Assembly (NCBI GenBank): GCA_002708985.1
Contig: PAPS01000033.1
Coordinates: 71,803-135,355 of the forward strand
From: Saprospirales bacterium
Lineage (GTDB): Bacteria; Bacteroidota; Bacteroidia; Chitinophagales; UBA8649
Direction of reading: 5' to 3'
DNA length: 63,553 nt
The notes below the pieces were generated by a model, which saw only the letters and a list, made by a program, of their open reading frames with translations, ran no database searches and was not told the origin of the DNA. Numbering within the stretch: the stretch's first letter is position 1; the number at the start of each line of letters is the position of its first letter. Position numbers and translations under genes: made by a program. Below are positions 40,768-47,133 of this stretch, in pieces.

Positions 40768-42408
40768 TTACATCATACCGCCCATTCCTCCCATGCCGTC
40801 CATACCTCCTGGCATAGCTGGCGCCTCTTTTTCAGGCTTATCGGCTATGACCGCTTCAGTGGTGAGTAACATGGATGCGATCGATGCAGCATTTTCCAAG
40901 GCAACTCGAGCAACTTTTGTAGGATCGATTATACCAATCGCTTTTAAGTTGTCGAATTTATTTTCTCTTGCATTATAGCCAAAGTCACCTTTGCCTTCAG
41001 ATACCTTGTTGACAATGACAGAACCTTCAACACCAGCGTTGAATGCTATTTGTCGCAAAGGCTCTTCGATGGCGCGTTTAACCACTTCGATACCAACGGA
41101 CTCATCTTCGTTTATACCTTGTACGCTTGATAAGGCATCGAGGGCTCGGATATACGCAACTCCTCCTCCAGGCACGATGCCTTCTTCTACTGCAGCTCGT
41201 GTCGCATGAAGCGCATCATCCACTCGATCTTTCTTTTCCTTCATTTCAACTTCGGTAGCTGCACCAACGTATAATACGGCAACTCCTCCAGCAAGCTTGG
41301 CTAGACGCTCTTGAAGTTTTTCTCGATCGTAGTCCGACGTAGTCGTTTCAATTTGCGCTTTGATCTGGTTGACACGTGCTTTGATGGCCTTATCATCTCC
41401 AGCACCGTTGATAACGGTGGTATTGTCTTTATCCATGACTACTTTTTCTGCAGTACCTAATTGTTCAACGGTTGTTCCTTCCAAGGAAAGGCCGCTTTCC
41501 TCAGAGATAACCTCCCCTCCAGTTAGCGTAGCAATGTCTTGTAGCATCGCTTTTCTGCGATCTCCAAATCCTGGAGCCTTCACTGCGGCAACCTTAAGTG
41601 TACCCCGCAGTTTATTTACTACTAGCGTAGTCAAAGCTTCGCCTTCTAGGTCTTCTGCAATAATTAACAGAGGACGGCCGCTTTGAGCCACTTTCTCAAG
41701 AACTGGAAGAAGATCCTTCATAGCAGAAATCTTCTTGTCATGAATAAGGATAAATGGATTGTCTAATTCTGTTTCCATTTTTTCCGAGTTCGTAACGAAG
41801 TATGGAGAGAGGTATCCTCGGTCAAACTGCATACCCTCAACAACATCAACATAAGTCTCTGTTCCTTTGGCTTCCTCTACAGTGATTACACCTTCTTTCC
41901 CAACTTTCTCCATCGCATCGGCAATAAGACCTCCAATGAAGTCATCATTGTTGGCAGAGATTGCAGCAACTTGTTTGATTTTTTCGGATGAATCACCTAC
42001 TGCTTCAGAGTTGGCTTTGAGTTGATCAACAATAGCGGCTACTGCTTTATCAATACCTCGTTTAATATCCATTGGGTTACTACCGGCTGCTAAGCTCTTT
42101 AAACCAGGGATAATGATGGCCTGCGCTAATACGGTGGCAGTAGTAGTTCCATCTCCAGCAACGTCGTTGGTCTTAGAGGCAACCTCTTTTACCATTTGTG
42201 CTCCCATGTTTTCGACTGGATCCTCTAACTCAATTTCTTTAGCTACGGATACTCCATCCTTAGTGATAGCTGGTGCACCAAACTTCTTTTCAATAATAAC
42301 GTTTCGTCCTTTAGGGCCTAACGTTACTTTTACAGCATTAGCGAGTTGATCAACACCAGATTTGAGTTGACCGCGTGCTTCTGCATTAAATTCTATGATT
42401 TTAGCCAT
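40768..42408 (-). CDS. groL: Chaperonin GroEL
   Basis: [17 protein letters not shown] and a GGM-repeat tail. Confidence 0.99.
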
Positions 42409-42425
42409 TTTGCTTAGTATTTGTA

Positions 42426-42719
42426 TTAGTTAACAATTGCGAGAATATCAGATTCACGCATAATCATGTAAGATTCACCATCGAGATTCACTTCAGTACC
42501 TGCGTACTTGCCATAAAGAACTGTATCACCATTTTTAACAACAGGTGCTACGCCTTTATCATCCTTTTCACTCACTGCCATTACATGGCCCTTTTGAGGT
42601 TTTTCTTTTGCAGAATCAGGGATAATGATTCCGCCAGCTGACTTTTCTTCAGCATCAGCAGACTTAACGACCACCCGGTTATTACTACCTGCTAGTGGAT
42701 TTATATTAATTGAACTCAT
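42426..42719 (-). CDS. groS: Co-chaperonin GroES
   Basis: [24 protein letters not shown] and MRESDILA motifs. Confidence 0.97.
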
Positions 42720-42746
42720 AGTATGTCTAAATTTTGAATTTTGTTA

Positions 42747-42762
42747 AGCGAATAGTATACCA
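42747..42762 (-). promoter_or_regulatory. Putative sigma54 -24/-12 promoter of groES-groEL
   Basis: On -: TGGTATACTATTCGCT = GG-N10-GC, ending 27 nt upstream of the groES ATG. No TAnnTTTG or CIRCE found in the intergenic region. Confidence 0.6.
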
Positions 42763-42785
42763 ATTGCACAATGCGCATCTTTTGC

Positions 42786-44378: not shown

Positions 44379-45601
44379 CAGATATCGTATTCTCTAATTT
44401 TTCGATAGAGTGTTCGTTCGGAAATGCCGAGTTCTTCGGCGGCATTTTTTCTGCGACCCTGATGTTTATCTAGAGCCTTTTTTATCATTTGCCTCTCCAT
44501 GTCCATTAGGGAAAGTGAATCCTCGATTTCCTCAGCATTTGGGATATCTTCTTTAGTGTGCACAATGAGGCTCTTAGCATCGTCTTTTGGTGGTTCCCAT
44601 TGTATTTCTTTATTCGGTACAAAGGTGTGATTATCTAGCGGTAAATCCTCTCTGTACACCGAGGCATCCGTATGACCAATCACCTTTTTCAAAGCGTTGA
44701 TATCCTGCTTCAACTCAATAAACATCTTGACTAGTAGGGTAGTGTCCTCATTTGTGCTAGTTGCTCGTTCATCATCTGTTTGCGCTTGACGGAGTGCTGG
44801 TAGCCGGTTGTTGTTTATATCGGGTATTAGTTGAACAATATCATGAGCGCCAATAATGTCCTCAATGGCTAACACGGATAGCTGATCTGCCATGTTCCTT
44901 AGTTGTCTGACATTGCCGGGCCAAGGATACCGCTGAAGTAAGGATTGCGCATCTTCACTGAGTTGTATAGGTCTCCTACGATGTCGTTCTGCGAAGTCAG
45001 TAGCAAATTTTCTAAACAACAGTAAAATATCATCCCCGCGGTCACGCAGCGCAGGGATAGTTATGGGAACAGTGCTTAATCGGTAGTACAAGTCTTCTCT
45101 GAACTTGCCTTGTTCTGCTGCCTTTAGCAAATTTCTGTTGGTTGCAGCAACGATACGAACGTTGGTTTGTTGAACTTCGGATGAACCTACTTTAATAAAC
45201 TCACCTGACTCGAGTACACGCAGGAGACGTGCTTGTGTTCCTACAGGCATTTCTCCAATTTCGTCGAGAAAAATGGTGCCTCCATTAACCGTCTCAAAGT
45301 ATCCCTTGCGCTTATCTTGCGCTCCTGTAAAAGCCCCTTTTTCGTGACCAAAGAGTTCTGAATCAATGGTTCCTTCAGGAATAGCTCCGCAATTTACGGC
45401 AATGAACTTCTCATGTTTTCTCGGAGAGAGTTGATGAAGAATTTTTGAAAAGGCTTCCTTTCCCACGCCACTTTCTCCATTGATTAAAACTGATAGGTCA
45501 GTGGGTGCTACTCGCATGGCAATTTGAATCGCATGATTGAGCGATTGGGAGTTTCCAATAATGCCGAATCGTTGCTTGACGCCTTGTAAAGTGGGATTCA
45601 T
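44378..45601 (-). CDS. Sigma54-dependent enhancer-binding protein (AAA+ plus Fis HTH) without N-terminal sensory domain
   Basis: GESGVGKE, ELFGHEKGAFTGA, FLDEIGEM, FREDLYYRL, WPGNVRQL and AAEELGISERTLYRKI motifs. Confidence 0.95.
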   Translation of the reverse strand: MNPTLQGVKQRFGIIGNSQSLNHAIQIAMRVAPTDLSVLINGESGVGKEAFSKILHQLSPRKHEKFIAVNCGAIPEGTIDSELFGHEKGAFTGAQDKRKGYFETVNGGTIFLDEIGEMPVGTQARLLRVLESGEFIKVGSSEVQQTNVRIVAATNRNLLKAAEQGKFREDLYYRLSTVPITIPALRDRGDDILLLFRKFATDFAERHRRRPIQLSEDAQSLLQRYPWPGNVRQLRNMADQLSVLAIEDIIGAHDIVQLIPDINNNRLPALRQAQTDDERATSTNEDTTLLVKMFIELKQDINALKKVIGHTDASVYREDLPLDNHTFVPNKEIQWEPPKDDAKSLIVHTKEDIPNAEEIEDSLSLMDMERQMIKKALDKHQGRRKNAAEELGISERTLYRKIREYDI

Positions 45602-47073
45602 TAAGCTATAATTTCTCCTTTAAGAATGGCCTGGCTGTAATCAGTCACCTTAACTTGAATATATTCTCCAATGGTTGCGTCTCCTTTGGGAAAAACAATC
45701 ATTTTGTTCTGACTATTACGTCCGCACAAATCATCTTTCGAACGCTTAGAATATTTTTCGACTAGTACTTCAAAAGTTTTACCTAAGTCGGCTTTGTTGC
45801 GCGCTATGGAATGTTCTCTTTGCAAATCGATAATCTCTGCTAATCGACGCTTTTTATCAACTTCTAGAACATCATCTTCATAACGCTTAGCGGCAAGTGT
45901 ACCCGGTCTTTCAGAGTAAAAGAACATGTAGGCCATTTCATACTTTATCTCCTGCATGATGGATAATGTTTCTTTGTGTTGTTCTTCTGTTTCTCCACAA
46001 AACCCAGTGATGATATCAGTGGAGATAGCTGTATTAGGAAGAATTTTTCTAATGGCATCAATTCTATTCATATACCATGCTCTATCATAAGTACGGTTCA
46101 TGCGGTTTAGAACTTCAGAATTGCCACTTTGCACGGGGAGATGAATGTACTCACAGATGTTGTCATATTTTGCCATCACGTAGAGCACGTCGTCAAGCAT
46201 GTCTTTAGGGTGTGAGGTGGAAAACCTTACTCTTAGAAGCGGTGATACTTGGGCAACAGCTTCTAGAAGGTTAGCAAAGTTGAAGACATCGTCGGTATCC
46301 TTGAGTTCAATAAGTTTTTTTCCGCGAACCTTAGGATCTTCGGACCATCTGTAGGAGTCCACATTTTGGCCAAGCAGGGTAACCTCTCGGTAACCCTTGT
46401 CAAATAAATCTTGAGCCTCTGCGATGATGGATTTTGGATTCCGGCTCCTTTCTCTTCCTCGGGTAAATGGAACCACGCAAAAGGAACACATATTGTCGCA
46501 TCCACGCATTATTGAAATAAAGGCGGTAACACCGTTGCTCGAGAGTCTTACCGGGCTTATATCCGCATAAGTTTCCTCTCTAGAAAGTAAAACGTTCACT
46601 GCTTTTTGCCCACTTTCTGCCTCGGAAATTAAATCTGGTAAATGCCTGTAGGCATCCGGTCCTACGACAATGTCAACTAGCTGCTCTTCTTCAAGAAACT
46701 TCTCTTTGAGACGCTCTGCCATGCAACCTAGTACACCGATAAGCGCATCGGGTTTACGTCGTTTAACCACGCTGAAGTTTTTGAGCCGATTACGCACCCT
46801 TTGCTCAGCATTTTCACGAATAGAGCAGGTGTTCACAAAGACAAGATCAGCTTCATTATAGTCTCGTGTTGAAACGTAACCATTTTCGCATAGAACGGAA
46901 GCTACAATTTCACTATCAGAAAAATTCATTTGGCAACCATAGCTTTCTATGTAAAATCTTTTTCCGTTAGGCTGTATACCGCGTAATCCCTCTTTGACAA
47001 TGACTTCACCTTGTCGATCCTCTGATAGAAGACTGTGGTCATGTGCTTGAAAAGTTTCTTTTAAATCTAACAT
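45601..47073 (-). CDS. miaB: tRNA i6A37 methylthiotransferase
   Basis: [23 protein letters not shown] and [14 protein letters not shown] motifs; TRAM domain. Confidence 0.97.
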
Positions 47074-47096
47074 TGTATATGCTTCTAAAAAGTTAA

Positions 47097-47127
47097 CAAA
47101 GGTAAGGCCGTTTCTGTTTATGACAAA
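47097..47127 (-). promoter_or_regulatory. Housekeeping promoter of the miaB-bEBP-lptE-TPR-secG operon
   Basis: On -: TTTG (47127-47124), N19 spacer, TACCTTTG (47104-47097); matches the Bacteroidota -33/-7 consensus. Confidence 0.8.
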
Positions 47128-47133
47128 ATGTCA
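47121..47133. promoter_or_regulatory. Perfect palindrome TGACA-AAA-TGTCA overlapping the -33 box (candidate operator)
   Basis: The sequence tgacaaaatgtca is read directly. Confidence 0.65.

Follow-up and report, generated by a model that had tools for sequence, protein, structure and literature searches.

Which regulator controls the chaperone genes of a bacterium whose phylum, the Bacteroidota, to our knowledge lacks sigma-32 and mostly lacks HrcA? The question is raised by a locus at positions 40768 to 47133 of a 63,553-nucleotide stretch of DNA (the window; contig PAPS01000033.1 of assembly GCA_002708985.1, Saprospirales bacterium, positions 71,803 to 135,355), in which the chaperonin genes groES and groEL follow an operon that encodes an activator of sigma-54 promoters. 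The window is part of a 1.98-Mb genome in 46 contigs, 94.5% complete, from a marine Bacteroidota bacterium. A preliminary description of this DNA had proposed that the activator, a bacterial enhancer-binding protein (bEBP) without a sensor domain, binds the palindrome TGACA-N3-TGTCA, activates groES-groEL through sigma-54 and represses its own promoter. Our analysis partly supports that interpretation. We consider it likely that the locus combines the master activator of a sigma-54 protein-quality-control regulon with one of the targets of that regulon. The cis picture is well supported at the level of sequence: chaperone genes have sigma-54 boxes with a phased candidate palindrome, which recurs at the promoter of the activator operon.

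Palindromes and sigma-54 boxes at chaperone genes

Searching with the bEBP retrieved 80 loci, in 29 of which miaB lies directly upstream of the activator gene. The motif TG[ACT]CA-N3-TG[TGA]CA was found upstream of miaB in 24 of these 29 distant loci, with the consensus CTG(C/A)CA-N3-TGTCA(C/T) and, by eye, 16-21 nt before a TAnnTTTG-type box. A palindrome matrix built from these 24 foreign sites was run over the whole genome and gave 197 matches of at least 9 bits, 30 of them intergenic according to crude open reading frame (ORF) calls; several matches of 14-18 bits fall within ORFs. The top six intergenic loci were miaB (20.2 bits), htpG (18.5), hsp20 (15.6, with a second site of 12.0 bits), groES (14.6, at the site called B below), grpE (14.2), and dnaK (13.3).

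For the promoter half of the pattern, a sigma-54 matrix was derived from foreign promoters (13 of groES, 18 of htpG), and both elements were required within 130 nt. This composite search returned 52 matches in the genome vs. 18 in a reversed-sequence control, and 15 matches exceeded the control maximum of 22.3. Six of those 15 lie upstream of ORFs, namely an MBOAT gene, htpG, a Zn_peptidase_2 gene, hsp20, groES, and clpB. The other nine, located within ORFs or far from a gene start, were taken as chance; one of them, near position 22418 of the window, is antisense within the ORF 22091..22720. Boxes of the -24/-12 type are present in this genome at groES, htpG, hsp20, clpB, and dnaK. Overall, the candidate pair of a 13-bp palindrome, TGNCA-N3-TGNCA, and a -24/-12 box accompanies groES, htpG, dnaK, grpE-dnaJ, clpB, hsp20, and the gene of a Zn-metallopeptidase, the last of which is, judging from its upstream region, a likely extra member of the regulon.

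The pair was also sought in up to 30 genomes of the same genus, family, and order, in which ~300 nt upstream of each gene were scanned and the rest of the locus, on both strands, served as the control. Palindrome and sigma-54 box occurred together at htpG in 25 of 26 loci (control: 0 in 189.6 kb), a count that is circular for its sigma-54 half because the matrix was trained partly on htpG promoters of relatives. They were likewise found at groES in 24 of 28 loci (0 in 162.7 kb), at dnaK in 23 of 28 (1 in 240.1 kb), at grpE in 17 of 27 (2 in 157.5 kb), and at clpB in 6 of 21, five of these within the genus (1 in 205.1 kb). The control total over the five genes was 4 matches in ~955 kb. The check that the preliminary description had suggested, a search for TG[AC]CA-N3-TG[GT]CA together with a -24/-12 box at other chaperone genes, therefore revealed strong enrichment, both in the organism's own genome and in its relatives.

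Beyond the order, htpG of Flavobacterium, Paenimyroides, Elizabethkingia, and Pedobacter carries a palindrome 11-12 nt before a TGGTAC, TGGTAT or TGGAAC box; these palindromes were judged by eye, except that of Pedobacter, which the matrices find. At htpG of a Prevotella metagenome-assembled genome, the matrix scan detected a sigma-54 box and no operator match. Matrix matches upstream of groES in Flavobacterium and Paenimyroides were rejected, as they are secG terminator hairpins (ATGCCAGC...GCTGGCAT) and not operators; such hairpins can produce false positives whenever the palindrome motif is used for scanning.

Some properties of this material weigh against the proposed reading. The related genomes are not independent of each other, so that p-values overstate the case, and the promoters used for training were chosen by eye for groES and by regular expression for htpG. 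Outside the genus, the clpB pair was recovered in only 1 of 16 loci. At grpE, the -24 element reads AG for GG in 5/5 same-genus genomes (TTGGCAA in family-level relatives), which is either a tolerated variant or the sign of a weakened promoter.

Several individual loci deserve a description of their own. A scan of crude ORF-based upstream regions with the textbook consensus (29 genes, Pfam run on 20), which the whole-genome matrix scans replaced, had missed htpG, since the longest ORF overran the htpG promoter. The true start of htpG (contig C27, ~20750-20790) is probably the 13th codon of that ORF; its palindrome, TGCCA-TTT-TGGCA, itself resembles a -24 box, and a better sigma-54 box, CGGCAT-N5-TTGCT, lies 22 nt downstream. 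At grpE-dnaJ (contig C9, ~35488-35540), the palindrome TGCCA-TTA-TGGCG is 12 nt from a TAGCAA-N5-TTGAG box. The Zn_peptidase_2 gene (PF04298; contig C42, 14148-14852) has a pair of 30.4 bits with a spacer of 21, among the best in the genome. The gene lon follows clpB after a 163-nt gap (contig C3, 31460-36554), and dnaK is split over two contig ends, C15 (64121-64720) and C46, its first 200 codons following the promoter on C15. ClpB proteins of the genus reach ~990-1009 bits on TIGR03346 vs. a cut-off of 1232 (most other relatives 1225-1320), and their first 120 residues are ~30% identical to those of other relatives.

The candidate groES promoter and the helical phase of its sites

To describe the geometry, we defined the spacer as the distance from the palindrome end to the T of TGG and collected 109 spacers from loci outside the genus. 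In 52 of the 109, the spacer is 11-13 nt; the others cluster at 22-24, 32-34, 44-45, 53-54, 62-66, 73-75, 84-85, and 96-97 nt. The 57 spacers longer than 13 nt fit a period of 10.5 bp (R 0.84, mean phase -0.1 relative to 12), and alternative periods fit worse (R 0.41 at 9.5 and 0.31 at 11.5). Because the spacers equal 12 nt plus multiples of 10.5 bp, the sites all lie on one face of the helix, and the predicted primary site is centred near -45. The spacers in the organism's own genome are 22 nt at htpG, 21 at the Zn-peptidase gene, 12 at clpB, 44 at hsp20, and ~32 at dnaK.

The gene groES (42719..42426, minus strand; 97 aa; Pfam Cpn10, E 2e-29) is preceded by a candidate sigma-54 promoter, TGGTATACTATTCGCT, at 42762..42747 (minus strand), with GG at 42761-42760 and GC at 42749-42748, 27 nt before the groES ATG at 42719. 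By convention, transcription is predicted to start near 42736. The box combines the GG-N10-GC spacing with a TGG and TxGC context, as in sigma-54 promoters. While a bare GG-N10-GC is roughly a chance-level pattern, TGGTATACTATTCGCT scores 11.6 bits on the matrix from the relatives' promoters, as high as only 191 of 3.96 million genome positions, and a score of at least this value is expected ~0.007 times per 150 nt. The earlier claim that this element stands without a CIRCE or TAnnTTTG box also holds: CIRCE with up to 3 mismatches had 0 matches in the window, and no TAnnTTTG occurs between 42720 and 42873.

Comparison with relatives places this box in a conserved context. Counterpart boxes of the form TTGGCAC/T-N5-xTGx precede groES at 13 distant loci and, within the same order, at 24 of 28. 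In the distant set, the -24 box TTGGCA(C/T) is conserved and the -12 element is mostly xTGA or xTGC; more generally, groES and htpG of relatives mostly have TTGA or xTGA as the -12 element, A replacing the C of the textbook GC, and TTGC is less frequent. Within 200 nt upstream of the groES box in 14 sequences (the window included), CTGACA/TGTCAG occurs 22 times vs. 1.1 expected and CTGCCA/TGGCAG 16 times vs. 1.4 expected. In this comparison, the palindrome is the sole conserved element upstream of the promoters.

Two degenerate copies of the palindrome had been reported just upstream of groES, and both are present. Site B, TGCCA-ATT-TTTCA (42798..42786, minus strand), is a candidate enhancer of 14.0 bits, with 20 genome positions as high, and lies 23 nt before the T of TGG (12 + 10.5). 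Site A, AGACA-CTT-TGCCA (42818..42806, minus strand), is a weaker candidate whose 3.5 bits (2621 genome positions as high) are not significant taken alone; it lies 43 nt upstream of TGG (12 + 3 x 10.5), and the helical phase is kept. Site B, which is also in helical phase, is the strongest predicted site at groES. In 4/4 same-genus genomes, both sites and the -24/-12 box are conserved, the box with one change (TGGTATGCTATTCGCT), while the DNA between them drifts.

These data bear on an alternative in which groES of this organism does not depend on sigma-54 at all, the box being a relic and transcripts of the gene arising either from the secG operon, by read-through, or at a housekeeping promoter that escaped recognition. 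TGGTATACTATTCGCT fits only 8/12 specified positions of the textbook consensus and is degenerate, with TGGTAT and TCGC rather than TGGCAC and TTGC. A weak sigma-70-like pattern is found at 42747..42718. Between secG and groES, no terminator-like hairpin was found. Both groES and groEL are covered by metatranscriptome contigs (4 runs, one study), of which one extends as far as 42791, a position 55 nt before the predicted groES start; given the lack of a terminator after secG, read-through or another start is possible. Against this, contigs cannot define RNA ends, and because they cannot show RNA 5' ends, nothing follows from them for the groES start site. Moreover, the genus has kept the box and both upstream sites although the DNA between them has drifted, a score of 11.6 bits is rare in the genome, the TAnnTTTG box of a housekeeping promoter is missing, and TGGTAT-type -24 boxes recur at htpG of other Bacteroidota. 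We therefore regard a sigma-54-independent groES as improbable.

A sensor-less activator and the promoter of its operon

The palindrome that gave the matrix its highest intergenic match lies at the head of the operon upstream of groES. It is a perfect copy, TGACA-TTT-TGTCA, at 47133..47121 (minus strand), a candidate autoregulatory operator of 21.9 bits, and no other genome position scores as high or higher. The miaB operon has a housekeeping promoter of the Bacteroidota type, with the -7 box TACCTTTG at 47104..47097 (minus strand). Because the TTTG of the palindrome is 19 nt upstream of TACCTTTG, the palindrome overlaps the -33 box, in a -33/-7 geometry that matches the layout of Bacteroidota promoters. 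The perfect palindrome over the -33 box was thereby confirmed, and its position is conserved in relatives. Exact TGACA-N3-TGTCA has 3 copies in the 1.98-Mb genome, the miaB copy being the sole intergenic one; with up to one mismatch, there are 3 exact and 48 single-mismatch copies, and 7 of the 51 are intergenic. Since the exact-palindrome count is near chance, the weight rests on the conserved position. Within the same order, the operator precedes miaB in 23 of 26 independent loci (control: 1 match in 101.8 kb), a TAnnTT-type box follows 16-20 nt downstream in 19 of these 23, and miaB is followed by the bEBP gene in 24 of the 26. No sequences at least 97% identical are shared between the same-order loci and the training loci.

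The candidate reader of the palindrome is encoded by the second gene of this operon (45601..44378, minus strand), whose 407-aa product has a PspF-type architecture with the Pfam domains Sigma54_activat (PF00158, E 1.1e-68), AAA lid, and HTH_8. It has no N-terminal sensor or regulatory domain, and its AAA+ domain (14-260) begins at residue 14. In an alignment of 15 sequences, the Walker A and B motifs GESGVGKE and FLDEIGEM are invariant, as are G89, T92, G93, and A94 of the intact GAFTGA loop, and the helix-turn-helix (HTH) is highly conserved. An AAA+ activator with an intact GAFTGA and an HTH, as first described, is indeed what the gene encodes. No NCBIfam model reached its equivalog cut-off; that of PspF (TIGR02974) was the only one to align over the full length, with 274.8 bits vs. 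a cut-off of 443.55. An AlphaFold model based on the 15-sequence alignment (mean predicted local distance difference test score, pLDDT, 77.4) is confident for the AAA+ domain (1-260) and the HTH (365-405). A helix at 283-314, of moderate confidence, coincides with a conserved LLYKxLFDMKxD motif, and the stretch 312-363 is modelled as a disordered tether of ~50 residues whose length varies between orthologues. Such a long, flexible tether would be compatible with activation from a site adjoining the holoenzyme.

The rest of the genome narrows the choice of regulators. The sigma factor itself, rpoN, is absent from the window, as had been stated, and is present on contig C40 (488-aa frame, PF04552, 170 bits). 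The presence of rpoN, like the motif enrichment at other chaperone genes, is an outcome that favours the preliminary interpretation and could have refuted it. Strong PF00158 matches were obtained for just two proteins of the genome, the sensor-less bEBP and a response regulator with a receiver-AAA+-HTH architecture (contig C7, 58468-59826). A genome search for HrcA (PF01628) found none, and the best genome match to the sigma-32 model TIGR02392 has 162.7 bits vs. a cut-off of 323.1 and is presumably the primary sigma factor. Because its gene is linked to groESL, its own promoter carries the operator, and the genome has just one other bEBP, the sensor-less bEBP is the most economical candidate for the reader of the palindrome.

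In the mechanism that we propose, the HTH of the sensor-less bEBP would bind the palindrome, and from the phased sites its AAA+ ring would remodel the sigma-54 holoenzyme, with the ~50-residue disordered tether giving it the necessary reach at the proximal site. The protein may also regulate its own promoter, probably negatively, as do PspF and NtrC. Control of the bEBP, which has no sensor domain, probably comes from a factor acting in trans or from the folding state of the protein itself; its titration by DnaK or GroEL would be the obvious guess, by analogy with sigma-32, HrcA, and HspR.

The palindrome could also be real and yet be read by another protein, such as a heat-shock repressor or an architectural factor, while the bEBP acts from solution or from other sites. 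A 12-nt spacer beside the holoenzyme and an overlap with the -33 box are classic repressor or class-II positions, and the operator centre at ~-36 to -41 of the miaB promoter fits a class-II-type activator and a repressor alike. In studied bEBPs, enhancer sites are typically 80-150 bp upstream; a site centred at -45 is much nearer and would suit another factor too. Some bEBPs work without DNA binding, and the link between HTH and palindrome is a presumed one. These points tell against the bEBP as reader. On the other side, no conserved element other than the palindrome occurs upstream of these promoters, 47 of the 55 loci examined have it at the promoter of the operon that encodes the bEBP, the bEBP retains its highly conserved HTH, the strict 10.5-bp phasing out to ~100 bp is the mark of a face-dependent activator, and the genome yielded no HrcA. 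A different reader is, in our view, unlikely.

The existence of two bEBPs allows a further division of labour, in which the receiver-type protein activates the chaperone genes and the sensor-less one regulates envelope functions tied to lptE and secG. The sigma-54 regulon of Flavobacterium psychrophilum includes envelope-stress genes, and in the text of that study the authors leave its activators unassigned (PMC9723704). The gene of the receiver-type bEBP, however, is not linked to chaperone genes, nor was a palindrome seen at its promoter. In contrast, the sensor-less gene carries the palindrome on its own promoter and, in 13 loci of other orders (Cytophagales, Saprospiraceae), is followed by groESL in the order bEBP-lptE...secG-groES-groEL. 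There seems little chance that the receiver-type protein is the chaperone activator.

The genes of the locus, miaB, the bEBP gene, lptE, a 227-aa gene, secG, groES, and groEL, all lie on the minus strand in that order. The first gene, miaB (47073..45601), encodes a tRNA methylthiotransferase (NCBIfam TIGR01574, 469 bits vs. a cut-off of 355), and its stop shares TAATG with the bEBP start. The bEBP stop overlaps the start of lptE (44378..43872), which encodes a lipoprotein (Pfam LptE, E 4e-9). Next come the 227-aa gene (43878..43195), whose product has a weak TPR-like C-terminus (TPR E ~1e-3, below cut-off), and secG (43185..42874; Pfam SecG, E 1.1e-15), the last gene of the upstream operon. 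As these five genes overlap or nearly abut, they probably form one operon. A 154-nt gap separates secG from groES, and groEL follows at 42408..40768 (546 aa; Pfam Cpn60_TCP1, E 5.4e-80).

By eye, the 227-aa protein is without a signal peptide or membrane segment, and its C-terminal part is conserved in the relatives' loci. Being cytoplasmic and co-transcribed with a sensor-less activator, this TPR-like protein may serve the bEBP as a trans-acting partner. On the other side of the miaB operator, a divergent MBOAT/DltB-like gene (47429..48877) is preceded, at a distance of 206 nt, by a sigma-54-like box, GAGGCATAACTTGTGAC (12.0 bits; 47223..47239, plus strand). This box is 90 nt away from the operator and does not share its helical phase. 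The ordinary promoter of the gene may be the TAAGTTTG box at 47296-47303.

Known sigma-54 and heat-shock systems

Sigma-54 control of chaperones in Bacteroidota has already been published (PMC9723704, PMC12316311), so that this part of the novelty suggested for the locus does not stand. In F. psychrophilum, 5'-end RNA sequencing placed the sigma-54 motif SM4 before groES-groEL, lon, dnaK, grpE-dnaJ, htpG, skp, and clpB (PMC9723704, Guerin et al. 2021). The gene set behind the -24/-12 promoters of its SM4 cluster B254 (groES-EL, dnaK, grpE-dnaJ, htpG, lon, clpB) is common to both organisms, and so is the neighbourhood of regulator, lptE, and groES, since a 'probable sigma-54-dependent regulator' followed by lptE is described there a few genes from groES (PMC9723704). 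Whereas transcription starts were mapped in that work, the present analysis contributes a phased enhancer motif and a candidate for the activator, both predicted from sequence. The main text of PMC9723704 notes three PF00158 proteins, assigns no activator, and does not contain the string 'palindrom'. Similarly, a survey with position-specific scoring matrices (PLoS One 2025) reports sigma-54 promoters enriched at GroEL/ES, IbpA, GrpE, DnaJ/K, and proteases in Bacteroidota and Planctomycetota, and, in the text consulted, deals with promoters only and not with an activator or enhancer (PMC12316311). What stands of the novelty is the activator and the enhancer motif: our literature search, supplements aside, found no publication that names either.

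Among characterised activators, PspF of the Escherichia coli phage-shock response is the closest in architecture, having an AAA+ domain and an HTH and no N-terminal regulatory domain. Both PspF and NtrC are negatively autoregulated, and PspF binds near its own promoter. The bEBP differs from PspF in several respects: it falls below the cut-off on TIGR02974 and is hence not an orthologue, PspA (PF04012) was not found in the genome, its proposed targets are cytoplasmic chaperones, it has an additional long helix and tether before the HTH, and its predicted primary site is near -45 vs. about -80 to -126 for PspF. HsfA and HsfB reportedly control lonD in Myxococcus xanthus, where a sigma-54 activator drives a heat-shock gene; HsfA, unlike the bEBP, is a two-component response regulator, whereas the protein described here has no receiver domain. 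With sigma-32, HrcA-CIRCE, and HspR-HAIR, the bEBP would have target genes in common, and probably the logic of chaperone feedback as well. It would differ from all three in mechanism, which is proposed to be enhancer-dependent, ATP-driven activation.

Heat, we infer, would be the signal to which the bEBP regulon responds. On the widest view, which we offer only tentatively and hold to be rather doubtful, the bEBP would be the long-missing heat-shock regulator of the whole phylum: tethered at about -45 or at in-phase sites, acting without DNA looping, titrated by chaperones, and self-limiting through the palindrome on a housekeeping promoter.

Bacteroidota include major gut, oral, marine, and fish-pathogenic bacteria, and their heat-shock response has no named regulator. 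Published work, as far as the texts consulted go, extends to sigma-54-type chaperone promoters in this phylum and no further. To these, the present analysis adds a 13-bp candidate enhancer, its strict helical phasing, and one candidate gene for the activator, conserved beside groESL. Sigma-54 control of chaperones being known for the phylum, the palindrome and its candidate activator point to an as yet unnamed heat-shock regulator, and if the proximal site near -45 is indeed used, the known geometry of enhancer-dependent activation would be widened.

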